Shown here piece after piece: positions 2,284 through 25,733 of a DNA stretch of 26,779 bases (positions within the stretch are counted from its first letter, which is position 1; each line of letters begins with the position of its first letter). A program made the position numbers and the translations under genes. Source of the stretch: a virus. The notes under the pieces were generated by a model. That model made no database searches and was not told the origin of the DNA. It saw nothing but the letters and a program-made list of their open reading frames with translations. The stretch lies in the UHGV virus genome UHGV-1446736; one strand, 5' to 3'.

Positions 2284-2636
2284 TACGCCTCCGATGTAAC
2301 AGTCGTTATTCCATAAAGAGTGTCGATTTCAGCGGAAAACATGACACGTCGGGTCGTGGTATCCACCGTCGTATTGAAAGAGAGGATTGATTTAACGCCC
2401 CGCGTTTCGAGGATGCGCTTACGGATCGCCAGGTTGTAGGTTTCCGGCTTCTGCTTACCGAGTACGGACTGGATCCACGGAGTCCCTTCGGTGGTGTCTA
2501 GAAACCATTGCCCATACCACAATTCAAATCGCGTTTTTACCGCCTGCGCCACGGCCTCCGGTGAGTTAATCAGCCAGGTATCATCACCGCTGCCAAAGGT
2601 GTAATCGCCATCGGCGTCTTCACGTCTGTATCGCAT
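2283..2636 (-). CDS. Small baseplate protein (Mu gp46 / gpW-like)
   Basis: 117-aa ORF between the spike and baseplate J genes, translationally coupled to both. Confidence 0.45.
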   Translation of the reverse strand: MRYRREDADGDYTFGSGDDTWLINSPEAVAQAVKTRFELWYGQWFLDTTEGTPWIQSVLGKQKPETYNLAIRKRILETRGVKSILSFNTTVDTTTRRVMFSAEIDTLYGITTVTSEA

Positions 2637-3388
2637 CAGTTTACTCCGTCGGTATTGCTTCCACCGCGCTGAACACCACCATGAGTGTGCGTATCATCGA
2701 TTAGCTTGCCGTTAGCCTTCACGCTACCCAAAAACTCAACAGCACCAGTGATTTTTGAAGCCACACCAGAAACAACAGACCCCACCATGCCCCCCATCCA
2801 GGTTAACAGGCCATGAATGGTTACTTTCTCAGAAAAATCAGCCAGAGGGGCAACCACATCAAGCCCCCCCGGAGCGACAATTTTAATTTTCCTGGTATCA
2901 GGATTAAGCTCAAAATAGGTGCTGCCGTCGTCACTACGCAACTGTGTGGCACTGGTATTAATACCGCTAATCTTCCTTGCCTGCGACTGGGGACCGACAA
3001 TACAAAACGCATCCGATAAATCATGCATTCTGTCATCGACCGGCTCCTGTATCCCGCCACTCTGCCACCAGAAATCAATACAACGATCGGCAAAAATCAC
3101 CAAACATTCATCACCGGCTTTAGCTGGGAACGTTAGCGTACATCCTCCGCCGCGTGGGAATACCACTGGCACATCCACCAGCAATGGGTAATTTTTGGTA
3201 ATGCGGTTGCCGTCATTATCCTTTTCAACCGAACGGATAGCAGGCTGCACAACTGCCGTCACCGCATCAGGATCGAATGACTGAATAATGCCAGGCAAGG
3301 CGACACGGATCTGGTTCTTTGTTGTTTCCCGTTCAGATTTGAATGTTTCGGCAAGGTCGCCGCTGCGGGTCTGGTCAGATACTGCCAT
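2636..3388 (-). CDS. Baseplate central spike protein (P2 gpV / Mu gp45-like)
   Basis: 250-aa ORF with a C-terminal HTHGG (His-x-His) stretch like the apex motif of gpV-type spikes; a GGAG ribosome-binding site lies about 9 nt before the ATG at 3388. Confidence 0.5.
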   Translation of the reverse strand: MAVSDQTRSGDLAETFKSERETTKNQIRVALPGIIQSFDPDAVTAVVQPAIRSVEKDNDGNRITKNYPLLVDVPVVFPRGGGCTLTFPAKAGDECLVIFADRCIDFWWQSGGIQEPVDDRMHDLSDAFCIVGPQSQARKISGINTSATQLRSDDGSTYFELNPDTRKIKIVAPGGLDVVAPLADFSEKVTIHGLLTWMGGMVGSVVSGVASKITGAVEFLGSVKANGKLIDDTHTHGGVQRGGSNTDGVN

Positions 3389-3404
3389 TTAGTAGGCTCC
3401 AGAA

Positions 3405-3432
3405 AGCAAAAAACCCGCCGGATGGCGGGTTC
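3405..3432 (-). terminator. Rho-independent terminator closing the cargo island
   Basis: Plus strand reads aaaaaa-cccgcc-ggat-ggcggg-tt; on the minus-strand RNA this is a 6-bp GC stem with a 4-nt loop followed by UUUUUU. It lies 20-45 nt downstream of the 123-aa gene stop at 3451. Confidence 0.65.
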
Positions 3433-3450
3433 GTGGTAAATAGTGACTTT

Positions 3451-3822
3451 TTATGAAATCCGTTTAAAAAAATGCTGCGCGGTTAATAATGATTCCCTGG
3501 CAACGTCAGCATTTATCTTGGAGTCAGATAAGCGATAGTCGGCTTCATTCCGCGCTTGTCTCATTTGGCGGAGATCGTATGCAAGTATTTTTAATCTTGC
3601 AGGAGGTATTTCTTCCTTAGGTATGCCCATCCTACCTTGCATGTAGTTGATTAAATTAGCATGGTGATTATGTTCTACAGAGGGGACATGCTTCAGAGCC
3701 TCGCCAGCACGATGAAACATAGCATAGTAGGCTCGCGATACGGCATTACGATAACCAACTTCTTCGTCCAGAGTTAAACAATGTTCACTTGAACGCAAAA
3801 AATCAAAACTCTGAATAGTCAT
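3451..3822 (-). CDS. Hypothetical 123-aa protein, second gene of the AT-rich two-gene cassette (possibly a HEPN-like helical domain, speculative)
   Basis: ATG at 3822 preceded by AAGGA; it overlaps the last 20 nt of the upstream 258-aa gene; AT-rich codon usage unlike the flanking tail genes. Segments AYYAMFHRAGEAL and RQARNEADY loosely recall HEPN-type proteins, but this is unverified. Confidence 0.6.
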   Translation of the reverse strand: MTIQSFDFLRSSEHCLTLDEEVGYRNAVSRAYYAMFHRAGEALKHVPSVEHNHHANLINYMQGRMGIPKEEIPPARLKILAYDLRQMRQARNEADYRLSDSKINADVARESLLTAQHFFKRIS

Positions 3823-4579
3823 AAGTTTCCTTCGTATGGGACTCCCTTAAAACCGAGAAACGAGCAGTCATTTCACAGTCGTCTAACCTTGACTCAGAAC
3901 ATATCCTTTCAGCCAAATCAAAATTCATCAAAACGATATCTTCCGGAGTAGCTTTCTCCACTTGCACGAGATAATCACCGCCCATAGAGCTGAAAATTCC
4001 CAAGCTACCGGGAATAAGTTTACGTTCTTCAAGGATCGAATGAGTGATGTCCCCAAGCAATCTAAACTGCTCAGGTGTACAAACTTTTGCCTCGTAACAT
4101 CCTTTAACACCATCGATAAGCTCACGCATATAGGCTTCAGCTCCGTACTTGTCATCGTTTTCTGACAGTAAACGACAGTGCCATTCCATGTATTTCTGGA
4201 TTGCCGCTAGGTCACCAACCCGATAAGATTCCGCGGCAGCAAGCATAGTCAACATTTTCCCGCCAAACGAATCAGCAAGTTGATAAATAATTTCATGTAA
4301 CTGGCGGTAGTGATGTCGTTTGAAAAGGAAAGCAGCGAAATTCTTTGCAATAGTGATGTTGCCCATTTTCAGATGCTTATGAAAATGTTCATAGGCTAGA
4401 TCATCTTCACCATTTAAAGCATAAGCAAAACCAACCGCGCTAACATCGTTGCCTTCAGTGCTGGATGAATAATTGCGTAAAACGTAACGATAAGTGAACT
4501 CATCTATCGAAGCATTTTCTTCAAGCATCGCCCCGAACTGGATAACATAGTTACTGGATGCTTTAGCTGGTGTAGCCAT
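3803..4579 (-). CDS. Hypothetical 258-aa protein, first gene of the AT-rich two-gene cassette
   Basis: The ORF track starts at 4603 on a TTG; the first ATG is at 4579 (MATPAKASSNYV...) with AAGGA 5 nt upstream. No signal peptide or motif I recognise; AT-rich. Confidence 0.6.
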   Translation of the reverse strand: MATPAKASSNYVIQFGAMLEENASIDEFTYRYVLRNYSSSTEGNDVSAVGFAYALNGEDDLAYEHFHKHLKMGNITIAKNFAAFLFKRHHYRQLHEIIYQLADSFGGKMLTMLAAAESYRVGDLAAIQKYMEWHCRLLSENDDKYGAEAYMRELIDGVKGCYEAKVCTPEQFRLLGDITHSILEERKLIPGSLGIFSSMGGDYLVQVEKATPEDIVLMNFDLAERICSESRLDDCEMTARFSVLRESHTKETYDYSEF

Positions 4580-4624
4580 AATAATCCTTAACCCCAGAAT
4601 CAACTGCCTGAAATTGATGTCAGA

Positions 4625-4660
4625 AATGGATTATAGCTTTACTGATTAACCTTTTTACAC
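4625..4660 (-). promoter_or_regulatory. Candidate sigma70 promoter for the two-gene cassette
   Basis: A perfect TATAAT on the minus strand (plus 4630-4635) about 45 nt upstream of the 258-aa gene ATG; the -35 region (TGTAAA-like) is weak. Confidence 0.25.
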
Positions 4661-4971
4661 GGGAAAGACCCGATGATTTTCGGCGCATCCATGCTGTTCT
4701 GCAGCAGCTGGACGTTCAGGAAAGCTTTTCCGTTACGTTTCACAAACTCAAAGCCGTAATTGTTACCATCACGGGAAGGCATCAGGCCCATGTCCATTTT
4801 CATGTTTGAATAGTCACCATCTTTTCCCAGAAATTTTATCTTCTGTGATGTGACAGTTTCACCGTTAATAACAGTCATTCCGTCACCGGTCATCGTGTAG
4901 TTGCCGCACTGAATTGCAGCCATCGCCGGAGCAGTAACCATCATAACTAACGCCAAACATAACCGTTTCAT
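4639..4971 (-). CDS. Small secreted/periplasmic protein of unknown function (signal peptide)
   Basis: ATG at 4971 (MKRLCLALVMMVTAPAMAA...) gives a classic signal peptide with an AxA cleavage site; the mature protein is about 90 aa with two Cys. An AGAGGG ribosome-binding site precedes it and its start overlaps the hub gene stop (TAATG). Confidence 0.55.
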   Translation of the reverse strand: MKRLCLALVMMVTAPAMAAIQCGNYTMTGDGMTVINGETVTSQKIKFLGKDGDYSNMKMDMGLMPSRDGNNYGFEFVKRNGKAFLNVQLLQNSMDAPKIIGSFPCKKVNQ

Positions 4972-6035
4972 TAAAGCCCTCTTTCCCTCGCTGATGAGGA
5001 AACAAGATCCGCCGCACCACGCGCTTCGCACATCATATCCATGTACCACGCCTGGCCCCTTGTATCGCCAGTGTACATAATCCCGCGCACAATATAAACG
5101 CCATCCGTTGCGATGCTGGCAGGCTGCGATGTGGTGCCGCTTAGCGTAATATTTCCGTCCGTGTTCTGGTCGGTGATCTGCCCACCGGCCATCGCGATAT
5201 CGTTGTTCGACAACGCGGTGCGATATACAGAAGCCTGATCCAGCTGAATGAGCCCGTTAACCCGGATGTTCGGATTAATGAGCGCACGGACGTTTACGCC
5301 GTTACCGATGGTCTGCTGCGGCATGCCAATAAGCCCGGTAGCACTGTTGAGCACAATCGCTTCGTGAACATATTCGTTATTCGCCACCATCTGGCGTTGA
5401 CCATCCACGAATTGCCATGTTGCGCCACATTGCCCGGCTACGTTATCCATAAGATGCCGCGTCATGCCAAAGAGCACCCGCCCCCGGGGGAATACAGTCG
5501 CAGGCATTTCAGGCGTCAGGCCTTCGGTCGCGCCTTTGGCTTCAAAGTCTTTCATCAGCGCACGGTTTACATCAGCGACCGTGTAACCGGCAGCCAGCGT
5601 CTGTGAGGTTATACTGGTGGCAAAAGCCAGATCAGTATCTGCTGCCTGAATCAGGACGTAGGTATCAACCGGACTGTCTTTTCCTGTGACCGAGTAGCGA
5701 ATTTCACCGCTGAAAATCAGTCCGTAGTTGCGGCCATCTCTCTGGCCCACGTCCGCCGCGTCAACTTCCCGCACGGTCCCTACGTCGCTTGCTGACACCT
5801 CCGGCGCGATACCGTCGTAACCGGCAATCAGACGCACTTTCGAAAATTCCTGCCCGGTGATTCGGTTCACAGTATCTGCCGAGAGGTTATAAATTTTGAT
5901 AGTCCCTACCCGGGACGCGCTGCTGATGTTGAACCAGTCGATCGTAAAGGTGACTTTGAAATCACTTAGCTCAATTCCCTGACCGTTCCCGTCCACAAGC
6001 TGCAGCTCGAAATGTCTCATCCAGTTCTGTGACAT
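4971..6035 (-). CDS. Baseplate hub-like tail protein (Mu gpP / P2 gpD-like)
   Basis: 354-aa ORF placed after the tape measure and two small tail genes and before the spike, as expected for a hub protein; assignment by synteny. Confidence 0.45.
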   Translation of the reverse strand: MSQNWMRHFELQLVDGNGQGIELSDFKVTFTIDWFNISSASRVGTIKIYNLSADTVNRITGQEFSKVRLIAGYDGIAPEVSASDVGTVREVDAADVGQRDGRNYGLIFSGEIRYSVTGKDSPVDTYVLIQAADTDLAFATSITSQTLAAGYTVADVNRALMKDFEAKGATEGLTPEMPATVFPRGRVLFGMTRHLMDNVAGQCGATWQFVDGQRQMVANNEYVHEAIVLNSATGLIGMPQQTIGNGVNVRALINPNIRVNGLIQLDQASVYRTALSNNDIAMAGGQITDQNTDGNITLSGTTSQPASIATDGVYIVRGIMYTGDTRGQAWYMDMMCEARGAADLVSSSARERGL

Positions 6036-19663: not shown

Positions 19664-20215
19664 TTAGCCCATCATTTTTCTATACGCTTCTGCAACCTGC
19701 TCCGGCGTTAAGTTGGTAATTTCTGTTCTGACTGGTCCTCCGTCAGCACCAGTCACTTCATTTTTGACATTGTCTTTAAACGCCTGAACAGAAACATGAC
19801 GCCCGAGCAACTCAAGGTTTTTAACCTTATCAGGCCATTTGATTTTCTTCAGAAGTGCGGCGCTATCTGCGGATGCCATCTCCACGACATCCATTCCTGA
19901 TAACGTTGTGCGCCATACCTTAGGCCAGTCTTTAATGGGTTTTAGCTCACCGTTTTGCAGGAGAATGTCAAGCACATCCATCTGGTCGATTTCAATAAGG
20001 CGATTAAGTACATATTCTGCATTAATACCAACAAGATCATTGCGTTGCGCTTTCAGTTCGGCGATTCTTAACTTGATGTCAGGTTTTGACAGGTTTTCGG
20101 ATGCGGTACGGTTGGCTGTTTTTGCGCTGTACCCCGCCCGAATAGCCGCTTGCGTGGCGTTTAAATCGATGAGGTACTCGCGACAGAACATCTCTTGCTT
20201 GTCTGTGAGTGCCAT
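19664..20215 (-). CDS. Terminase small subunit (P27/Terminase_2-like)
   Basis: 183-aa ORF starting [30 protein letters not shown], the N-terminal signature of this small-terminase family; ATG confirmed at 20215. Confidence 0.8.
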
Positions 20216-20235
20216 TTTTTCTCAAAGGTGAATTT

Positions 20236-20667
20236 ATGAGCTCATTAACGTTTATCGGATTGTCACAGTTACTTTCTAGGAAAGGTGAGTTATTACAGCA
20301 AAATACGAATGATTTATTAGAACGTGTTAACACCGCATGGAATAACAAACGAGACCTTAATAAGCAAATTTCCATAGAGCTAAATGATGGAGAGCTTGAG
20401 GTTTCAATTCCACAGCTACGCTTTAAGTGTTTTACAGAAAGTAAGCTTTCACTTCACGAAGGCTCATTAATTGGGGTTATTACTTTTTACACATCGCGAG
20501 ATGGAAAAAAACAGGAGTTTCATAAAATTTTTCTTGATTGGAACAATTGCATGCATTTTGGGGCGCTTGACTCAACAGCTCCAATAGACATCGACTATAC
20601 CGAAGATGTTGAGTATCTCTTTATGAACGCTCTAATCGATTCTGCTTATCGAAATAATTTAATCTAA
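20236..20667 (+). CDS. Orphan plus-strand moron gene, hypothetical 143-aa protein
   Basis: The only convincing plus-strand gene in the window: ATG at 20236 with AAGGTG 5 nt upstream, markedly AT-rich, no signal peptide or transmembrane segment, no motif I recognise. It sits between terS and the lysis cassette, where lambda carries bor. Confidence 0.6.
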   Translation: MSSLTFIGLSQLLSRKGELLQQNTNDLLERVNTAWNNKRDLNKQISIELNDGELEVSIPQLRFKCFTESKLSLHEGSLIGVITFYTSRDGKKQEFHKIFLDWNNCMHFGALDSTAPIDIDYTEDVEYLFMNALIDSAYRNNLI

Positions 20668-21109
20668 TTGATGTTGGTGGTGAACTTTTGCCACCCAGTT
20701 AATCACTCTTAGCAGGATATAAGCCATTGTCGAGACCACTCATTGAATGGTCTCTGCAATAACCGATGTCTTTCCATCAGTCCGCCACCACAAAGAATCT
20801 TTTTTGCCATAAGGCAGGAGGTTCATCTTTCAGTGGCTGCCAGTGTTATTTCCCCACTTACTGGCTTGGGTTGTTTCGCTGTACTGCCGTAACTGGTTGC
20901 CCAGAATAAATTCCGGTTTCATTATCAAGCCCACCCGTAGATAGGCTTTGTAATTAACTGGCTCTTATCTCAACGCAGCCCCTTACCGCGCGCCAGATGC
21001 TCAACTTCAAGCATCAGCAATGAGATGTTTAATCTGGATTCACTCCAGAAGTGATCACCACCCTGTCTACAGAGCCAGATGTGAAGGATGATGAGTAAAA
21101 TTATCGCTA

Positions 21110-22374: not shown

Positions 22375-22450
22375 TGGTGCTGGTTAACGGACTTGAACCG
22401 CTACCCATTCGCTTACAAGGCGACTGCTCTACCATTGGAGCTAAACCAGC
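22375..22450 (-). tRNA. tRNA-Thr (anticodon UGU), 76 nt with encoded CCA
   Basis: Minus-strand sequence GCTGGTT-TA-GCTC-CAATGGTA-GAGC-A-GTCGC-CTTGTAA-GCGAA-TGGGT-AGCGG-TTCAAGT-CCGTT-AACCAGC-A-CCA folds as a cloverleaf: 7-bp acceptor stem, 4-bp D stem with GG in the loop, anticodon loop with U33 and A37, canonical T-loop. Resembles E. coli tRNA-Thr. Confidence 0.65.
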
Positions 22451-22455
22451 ATATT

Positions 22456-22530
22456 TGGCGGGACAGCGTGGACTCGAACCACGATAAGAAGGTTAACAGC
22501 CTTCCGTAATGACCTTTATACGACTGACCC
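22456..22530 (-). tRNA. tRNA-Asn (anticodon GUU), 75 nt with encoded CCA
   Basis: Minus-strand sequence GGGTCAG-TC-GTAT-AAAGGTCA-TTAC-G-GAAGG-CTGTTAA-CCTTC-TTAT-CGTGG-TTCGAGT-CCACG-CTGTCCC-G-CCA: perfect anticodon and T stems, T-loop identical to E. coli tRNA-Asn, but one T:T mismatch in the acceptor stem and one in the D stem. Confidence 0.5.
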
Positions 22531-22533
22531 AAA

Positions 22534-22575
22534 TAAAAAAAGCCACCGTTGCAACTTAAGAGTCACTAACGGCAG
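22534..22575 (-). terminator. Candidate tR'-like terminator downstream of the late promoter
   Basis: Minus strand reads CCGTT...(17 nt)...AACGGTGGC followed by TTTTTTTATTT; the stem is weak and the loop long, so strength is uncertain. Confidence 0.3.
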
Positions 22576-22618
22576 CTTATGCCAATAGTGTTGCTCATTT
22601 GCTCAATGATGTCAACAC
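22576..22618 (-). promoter_or_regulatory. Candidate Q-dependent late promoter (pR'-like) with qut region
   Basis: A consensus TTGACA -35 hexamer lies 7 nt after the Q stop codon on the minus strand; the -10 is not canonical (CACTAT/ACTATT about 19-20 nt downstream). Location right after Q matches lambdoid late-promoter architecture. Confidence 0.3.
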
Positions 22619-22621
22619 GTT

Positions 22622-23110
22622 CTATGCTACATGTTTAATTTTCTCTACACGTTTCCGATTTTTAAACGCACTATCCAGAACCGGGTAAATCATAAACAAC
22701 GAGGCATTAAGGATTTCGTCAACTTCCCGTCGACAGGTTGCGAGCGATGGTTTTTGAATGCGCCCGCCGCCACGGCATAACATCTTGCGAGGTCTTGCGA
22801 CGCGATGATAGTAAGATGCAATGGCGTGCTTGGAAGAGCCATGAGCGTAGTAGCTGAGGAGGATTCCAAAGGCTTTCTTGTCAATGTACATGACGGAATC
22901 GACGACCTGAGAAATCAACATTCCATCATCATCATTACACATTGGCCTTGTCATAACTCTTCCCGGCTCTACGCTCTCCATGAACTTCGCTATTACGCTG
23001 CTCATGCGCTTTTCCAGACGACCTGAATAAACCCATGCGCCCCACAGTTCAAGCCAGCCATTCAGCCACTCATGCTGTTCTTTGGTGAGGTTTAGTTCTC
23101 TTATGCCCAC
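22622..23110 (-). CDS. Q: Late-gene antitermination protein Q (non-lambda allele)
   Basis: 162-aa ORF between ninI and the late promoter/lysis genes; GTG start at 23110 with GGGAGAAGG ribosome-binding site, overlapping the ninI 3' end by 10 nt; Cys-containing region ([10 protein letters not shown]) as in Q-family antiterminators. Confidence 0.7.
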
Positions 23111-25699: not shown

Positions 25700-25733
25700 A
25701 AATAAAAAGGCCTGCGATTACCAGCAGGCCTGT
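25700..25733 (-). terminator. Rho-independent terminator between ren and ninB (tR2-like)
   Basis: Plus strand reads aaaaa-ggcctgc-gattacca-gcaggcc-tgtt; on the minus-strand RNA this is a 7-bp GC-rich stem followed by UUUUUAUU. Position matches lambda tR2 in the nin region. Confidence 0.6.

Follow-up and report, generated by a model that had tools for sequence, protein, structure and literature searches.

A conserved predicted terminator at the spike-side border of a cargo slot in the tail operon of contractile-tailed lambdoid phages

[quoted passage not shown] In phage P22, the "ant moron" sits just 5' of the tailspike gene (PMC2629481), and in the defence hotspots of P2 and P4 (PMC9122126) conserved flanks surround highly variable, small accessory or defence cassettes. 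Transcriptomes of Salmonella prophages have been reported by Owen et al. (PMC7067206) for ST64B and others, a set outside which the prophage analyzed here falls. Here we describe a slot for accessory genes between the baseplate hub and the central spike genes of a lambdoid prophage, bordered on the spike side by a predicted intrinsic terminator.

The slot resembles the lambdoid morons (HK97 gene 15, lambda lom and bor; PMC3594210) in several respects. In both cases extra genes are found in a Q-dependent late operon, between two conserved tail genes and with a base composition unlike that of the flanks; both have a factor-independent terminator at the 3' end, and the presumed purpose of both is expression from the prophage without switching on the late genes. 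The HK97 moron, however, belongs to a siphovirus, where the tail chaperone gene is on one side of it and the tape-measure gene on the other, whereas the slot described here lies between hub and spike of a contractile tail. Like the P22 region, it is hypervariable, belongs to the late operon, is located just upstream of the gene for a host-contacting tail protein, and is the sole such site in the morphogenetic cluster, so placed that late transcription must cross it. P22 is nevertheless a podovirus, and its region has its own repressors and an antisense RNA, while we detected no such regulatory genes here; conversely, a conserved terminator beside the downstream Shine-Dalgarno sequence is not a described feature of P22, but is present in our locus. 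The P2 and P4 hotspots likewise have conserved flanks around variable cassettes, but they belong to another phage family and another genomic position, and in our case only a minority of the cargos match known defence families.

The window (the whole stretch of DNA that was analyzed, 26,779 nucleotides) is a lambdoid prophage, and the genes around the terminator are all on the minus strand. The terminator hairpin (3432..3411, minus strand) has 9 bp, six of them G-C pairs, and a 4-nt loop; from the hairpin to the spike start, the minus-strand sequence (5' to 3') is GAACCCGCC-AUCC-GGCGGGUUU-UUUGCUUUCU-GGAG-N8-AUG. The U-tract (3401..3413, minus) consists of T6 (3413..3408) and then GCTTTCT (3407..3401), and the first three T's of the T6 form the last stem pairs of the hairpin. 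Directly after the terminator tail comes the Shine-Dalgarno sequence of the spike gene, GGAG (3400..3397, minus), and the spike ATG is at 3388. On the upstream side, the hairpin is separated from the stop codon of the preceding ORF (3451-3453) by 18 nt, non-coding and on the same strand. A preliminary description of this DNA had placed a hairpin with U6 at 3405-3432, at about 18 nt from the spike start. Its coordinates and description are correct; the strand, which it did not state, is the minus strand, and we measured 19 nt between the last T of the T6 and the ATG. Terminator prediction and folding energy, two of the checks that it had proposed, both bear it out, since the site ranked first in both consensus scans of the window for terminator-like sites and the hairpin by itself has a computed folding energy of -15.5 kcal/mol. 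By its stem, its U-run and its non-coding sense position, the site is thus confirmed as a predicted Rho-independent (intrinsic) terminator of the canonical type.

Folded in a 56-nt context, the site reached -18.3 kcal/mol (z = -2.9), and 1 of 200 shuffled sequences was equally stable. The loose consensus scan returned 19 terminator-like sites in the window against 10.9 expected. These single-sequence statistics are only moderate, and the strong case against chance is the comparative one given below. On the minus strand within the late operon, this hairpin is the only site to combine a strong stem with a true T-run, and it is the sole canonical terminator in the approximately 22 kb of late operon inside the window. 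The hairpin is unidirectional, because the 3' flank on the plus strand is UUCGUGG, without a U-run. A scan of the whole window with Rfam at gathering thresholds recovered two tRNAs only, with no match at the terminator site. The hairpin core, CCCGCCN4GGCGGG, occurs once in the window (0.09 copies expected), and a dispersed element of the REP type was rejected on this ground.

The order of genes on the minus strand is that of a lambdoid phage. Replication and nin genes are followed by a Q-like gene, a 365-nt gap, and the holin, endolysin and Rz genes; then come terminase, portal, capsid, sheath, tape-measure and hub genes, three small genes and the spike, past which lie the wedge, baseplate-J and DUF2612 genes. 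The Q-like late antiterminator gene (22622..23110, minus) was recognized by its match to phrog_943, "anti-termination protein Q-like" (4.9e-90). Directly after it we found a promoter-like, pR'-like TTGACA (22615..22610, minus), whose -10 assignment is uncertain, and a tR'-like hairpin with U7 (22576..22535, minus; -20.2 kcal/mol). The succession of a Q-like gene, a promoter-like site, a strong terminator and a long co-oriented late operon is the same as in the Q/pR'/tR' system of lambda, and, as in that system, the late operon contains a further terminator. The two differ in that the gene here is Q-like by its match to phrog_943, and in that two tRNA genes, tRNA-Asn(GTT) and tRNA-Thr(TGT) (22375-22530, minus), separate the tR'-like terminator from the holin gene, the first of the lysis genes. 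In the annotation of a relative, phage SEN34 (genus Brunovirus), the lambdoid layout is the same, Q included. No promoter-like site was found on the coding strand from the terminator to the end of the window; given also the gap of only 19 nt, the spike, wedge, baseplate-J and later genes would therefore need readthrough. The preliminary description had left the choice between readthrough and an internal promoter, and it is the former that our search favors.

Two other features of the operons were observed. Between Rz and the small terminase gene, the late operon has a gap of 894 nt (20216-21109) with a plus-strand ORF of 152 aa (20209-20667) that had no PHROG match and a minus-strand ORF of 50 aa (phrog_11822); the gap may represent a further accessory insertion, on the opposite strand. 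At 25708-25731 on the minus strand there is a second terminator-like hairpin, also strong (8 bp, six G-C pairs), with a T-run. It separates the Ren-like from the NinB gene in the early right operon, the position of a terminator of the lambda tR2 type.

The comparison covered 164 loci that encode a spike homologue; a one-genome-per-species collection and IMG/VR supplied 80 each, and the other four came from phage records. In 146 of the loci both the end of the hub gene and the start of the spike gene could be placed. The gap between the two genes exceeded 100 nt, and thus held cargo, in 130 loci, and 126 of these had a hairpin with a T-run at most 30 nt from the spike ATG; the cargo-bearing loci without it were L003, L048, L136 and L140. 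Among the nine loci with a gap of 25-100 nt (empty slots), six had such a terminator, and among the seven in which the hub and spike genes overlap there was none. We also scanned the sense strand of the 69 analyzable loci from the one-genome-per-species collection, at approximately 9.7 kb per locus, with a strict definition of a terminator (a stem of 6 bp or more, four or more G-C pairs, and six T's in seven positions). The scan found 71 terminators, 53 of which end 8-32 nt before the spike ATG, while every other 250-nt bin holds two at most.

We aligned 56 distinct terminator sites, whose spike proteins are 46-100% identical. In the T-run, three T columns are invariant and another four reach at least 90% conservation; in the GGAG, the same holds for the outer two G's (invariant) and for the inner G and A (at least 90%), whereas the loop and the 5' flank vary freely. 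Paired cells make up 87.7% of the stem, which shows double changes from C-G to U-A (three times), from G-C to A-U (once) and from C-G to G-C (once). Covariation is only modestly above that of shuffled alignments, because the stem is mostly conserved in sequence. Both the position and the structure of the predicted terminator are, then, conserved among Enterobacterales, even where spike identity falls to 46%. The hairpin might also have arisen by chance and have no function, as its moderate single-sequence statistics (the z-score and the loose scan) would allow; this position-specific conservation across genera and at such low spike identity effectively refutes that reading, whose probability we consider negligible.

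Individual loci showed variations on this arrangement. The locus of Yersinia artesiana (L032) has a tandem pair of intrinsic terminators, 110 nt upstream of the spike ATG. A conserved motif, CCTGAYATTTGATCAGTAA, lies within the approximately 20 nt directly 5' of the terminator in six loci from different genera (L123, L020, L029, L065, L076 and L142); a small conserved ORF may end there, or the motif may form a second hairpin (CTGAT...ATCAG). In Yersinia phage YP3 (L003), one of the loci without the terminator, about 120 bp of the intergenic region next to the spike gene are present as a direct repeat, the two copies (3329-3446 and 4251-4369) flanking a single cargo gene of 266 aa, as if this gene had been inserted with a duplication of the target.

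The same comparison bears on a role of the hairpin in RNA stability or translation, in which it would either shield processed upstream mRNA at its 3' end or leave the Shine-Dalgarno sequence of the spike gene accessible, termination being incidental. The distance from the end of the stem to the ATG is short and constant in the relatives (13-25 nt), the Shine-Dalgarno sequence always comes next, and the element is present in six loci that have no cargo, as such a role would have it. The most conserved part, however, is the T-run of six to eight T's, which a terminator needs and a stabilizing hairpin does not; the composition of the stem is typical of strong terminators; and the element is missing where hub and spike are translationally coupled. 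We therefore consider this role highly improbable.

The region upstream of the terminator is hypervariable. The flanks of the slot are shared with 317 of 5426 complete E. coli genomes (approximately 6%), and the homology to them ends at the stop codon of the 110-aa secreted-protein gene, the first gene of the slot, and restarts exactly with the first hairpin base. The cargo of the window is found in only 3 of the 317 flank-sharing genomes. Over the 1.9 kb that were compared, the window is identical to E. coli SCU-301 (NZ_CP051751). Across the 130 cargo-bearing loci, we counted about 59 gene architectures and 77 protein clusters, most clusters having no family match. The GC content of the window's cargo (3450-4650) is 39-44%, against 50-56% in the hub and spike flanks. 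Among the cargos recognized in other loci are the defence protein PD-Lambda-1 (PADLOC, 2.8e-82), a toxin of the YafO family (2.9e-17) whose partner is encoded upstream, a membrane protein with DUF2335, and proteins that resemble lipoproteins in their N-terminal sequences, and those of some loci gave a weak PycTM-like match; in a PADLOC search of slot representatives, most were without a match, the cargo of the window included. The genes upstream of the terminator had been taken for cargo in the preliminary description, and their low GC, their absence or replacement in relatives and the defence and toxin genes found in the same slot elsewhere agree with this. As in morons, the position is variable, the GC content is deviant and a terminator stands at the 3' end, although here it belongs to the backbone and is not specific to the cassette. 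We found no description of a hotspot at the hub-spike position in the literature, of which our coverage was incomplete, and this is a weak sign of novelty; what may be new is to recognize in the hub-spike junction of this tail family a widespread cargo hotspot with a conserved terminator at its border.

Another reading is that the hairpin and the 3' end of the secreted-protein gene are mainly targets, by short homology or site-specifically, for the exchange of cassettes between prophages. The homology breakpoints coincide exactly with the first hairpin base and with the secreted-protein stop codon, and a single backbone carries many cargos. Moreover, in two loci (L007 and L121) the place of the secreted-protein gene is taken by another first gene, while its last 55-65 nt or so (…GCGCCGA[G/A]AATCATCG…TGTAAAAAAGTGGCTG…TGA) remain downstream of the replacement; these persisting 3' remnants suggest recurrent recombination inside a short conserved segment. 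Against this reading, no recombinase gene is associated with the slot, ordinary homologous recombination would also leave breakpoints at the edges of conserved sequence, and the conserved U-tract is left unexplained. As the main function of the hairpin we regard recombination as very unlikely; it is in any case compatible with a terminator and does not exclude one.

We next consider whether the terminator belongs to the cargo or to the phage. The same stem with the loop ACCC, the commonest loop, was found with at least 11 different cargo architectures, and loops also differ inside a single architecture; the idea that variants of the terminator travel together with particular cargos was rejected for these two reasons. 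The loops ATCC and GGAT, an apparent "flip", occur in different cargo contexts and were taken as coincidence. Since an identical stem is found under many cargos, the terminator is best assigned to the phage backbone, on the spike side of the slot. Six of the empty slots (L039, L041, L059, L071, L079 and L081) retain it, in hub-spike gaps of 38-86 nt that hold little beyond the terminator and the Shine-Dalgarno sequence; the terminator is therefore not merely that of the cargo, and it may have a role without any cargo. One of the six, the Salmonella locus L059, has no close phage record, the only match being SEN34 with 73% identity over one third of the query. In these two respects our locus departs from the morons: the terminator does not arrive with each moron but is a shared backbone element for dozens of unrelated cargos, and it is retained when the slot is empty.

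In a rough neighbor-joining tree of the spike proteins, cargo and terminator are found in all clades, the empty and overlapping states are nested, and the six terminator-bearing empty slots are spread over at least four separate clades. The nested states point to repeated loss of cargo, although the direction of change in the slot is not provable from the tree because phages are mosaic.

The empty slots, together with the P22 precedent, also suggest a reading of the hairpin as an attenuator of the late operon. It would then terminate a fraction of the transcripts from the late promoter and so set the ratio of upstream products (head, sheath, tube and hub) to downstream ones (spike, wedge and fibre), analogously to the effect proposed for the P22 "ant moron" on the level of tailspike. 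Both the persistence of the terminator in six empty slots from at least four clades and its fixed spacing to the Shine-Dalgarno sequence of the spike gene fit such a function. But Q-type antitermination normally overrides terminators of this kind, the seven loci with overlapping hub and spike genes and no terminator indicate that the tail does not need one, and there is no obvious stoichiometric ground for making fewer wedge and fibre than hub products. We therefore think attenuation unlikely.

The genes on the two sides of the terminator were characterized individually. The first gene past it (2636..3388, minus) encodes the central spike, of 250 aa, which matches the Pfam spike N-terminal domain (1.6e-43), has in addition a GpV apex motif, and is named "membrane-puncturing spike protein" in RefSeq. 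The conserved left flank of the slot is the baseplate hub gene (4971..6035, minus; phrog_196, 4.6e-89), with a sub-threshold match to Pfam E217_GP41. Its stop codon overlaps the start of the gene for a 110-aa protein (TAATG), which forms the left border of the variable region. This gene (4639..4971, minus; phrog_3443, 3.3e-53) codes for a conserved, presumably secreted protein with a predicted signal peptide, and is the first gene of the slot in 105 loci. The protein has two conserved Cys residues; it could be an exclusion factor, or else a periplasmic protein that is expressed late.

The two remaining genes are the cargo proper, and searches of PADLOC and Pfam for its function were essentially negative. 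The first encodes a protein of 256 aa (3803..4573, minus; phrog_17809, 1.1e-85) in which a domain of TPR-like helical repeats is followed by a small alpha/beta domain at the C-terminus (AF2 model, pLDDT 91.5); ten homologues were found in all, and a search of PDB structures gave weak, generic TPR matches only. The last cargo gene (3451..3822, minus; phrog_5176, 6.6e-35) encodes a HEPN-like protein of 123 aa. Its score with the Pfam HEPN model was 19.3 bits, under the cut-off of 22, the nearest PDB chains were of the HEPN/UPF0332 type with E about 0.1, and the HEPN motif Rx4-6H has the form R-NEAD-Y. Across 37 loci (e.g., L008, L061, L141 and L063), the HEPN-like gene is always preceded by a gene of approximately 243-266 aa. 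These partners form four clusters that have no reliable sequence similarity to one another (hhalign probability 28% and 1.4%). Compared with PADLOC 2023, the pair had no convincing match, the one marginal hit being HEPN_IX with the HEPN-like protein (E = 0.052).

Two sites from which the cargo could be transcribed were noted. A candidate promoter read from the sequence, TGTAAA-18-TATAAT (4659..4630, minus), with a perfect -10 and a weak -35 element, is located where the secreted-protein gene has its stop codon and precedes the 256-aa gene, and related HEPN cassettes have TTGAC(G/T)-17/18-xAxAAT at the matching position. A second promoter-like site, GTGAAA-18-TAAAAT (4833..4862, minus; 9/12 matches), lies inside the secreted-protein gene, and sites of this type are no commoner than expected by chance. 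When intergenic regions preceding variable cargo genes were tested for an enrichment of promoters, only 2 of 38 exceeded 95% of the shuffled sequences, which is not significant overall. In some relatives, the cargo gene overlaps the conserved gene upstream, leaving no space for a promoter of its own.

Putting these observations together, we consider it probable that the intrinsic terminator closes a moron slot as an insulator and that Q-modified polymerase reads through it, and this combination of moron and antitermination appears to us the best explanation of the locus. It is also the reading of the preliminary description, every part of which agrees with our computations. The terminator would be a conserved backbone element of contractile-tailed lambdoid phages (SEN34/Brunovirus-like) and would mark the downstream border of an accessory ("moron") slot between the baseplate hub and the central spike. 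In the lysogen, unmodified polymerase, entering from cargo promoters or from upstream, would transcribe the TPR-like and HEPN-like cargo and halt at the hairpin and U-tract, so that the spike, baseplate and tail-fibre genes would stay silent. Upon induction, Q-modified polymerase from the late promoter would pass the terminator, as it would pass tR', and proceed through the entire late operon. A terminator that stops transcription in the lysogen but is passed by Q-modified polymerase would thus make the junction safe for independently expressed cargo. Termination in vivo, expression of the cargo from its own promoter and Q-dependent readthrough are all proposed here on the basis of sequence.

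The terminator itself is a standard element in standard use, the insulation of morons in an antiterminated late operon, and it changes no concept. Its practical value is as a landmark, since a hairpin, a T-run and GGAG before a recognizable spike gene indicate the 3' edge of the cargo slot, which we also found in many other Enterobacterales besides E. coli. The landmark is nearly invariant and the cargo is mostly uncharacterized, so that candidate defence, toxin and exclusion genes can be mined cheaply. How well a strong terminator is overridden by Q-modified polymerase could also be measured conveniently in this natural system. A further-reaching interpretation, which we regard as possible but doubtful, is that the terminator is an ancient, selectively maintained insulator that has itself created the hotspot, and that the slot is an undescribed reservoir of accessory and defence genes. 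An example from this reservoir would be the recurrent pair of a HEPN-like protein and a fast-diverging partner of about 250 aa (TPR-like in the window), absent from PADLOC 2023, and the hub-spike junction would be the only place in the tail module that tolerates independently transcribed cargo.
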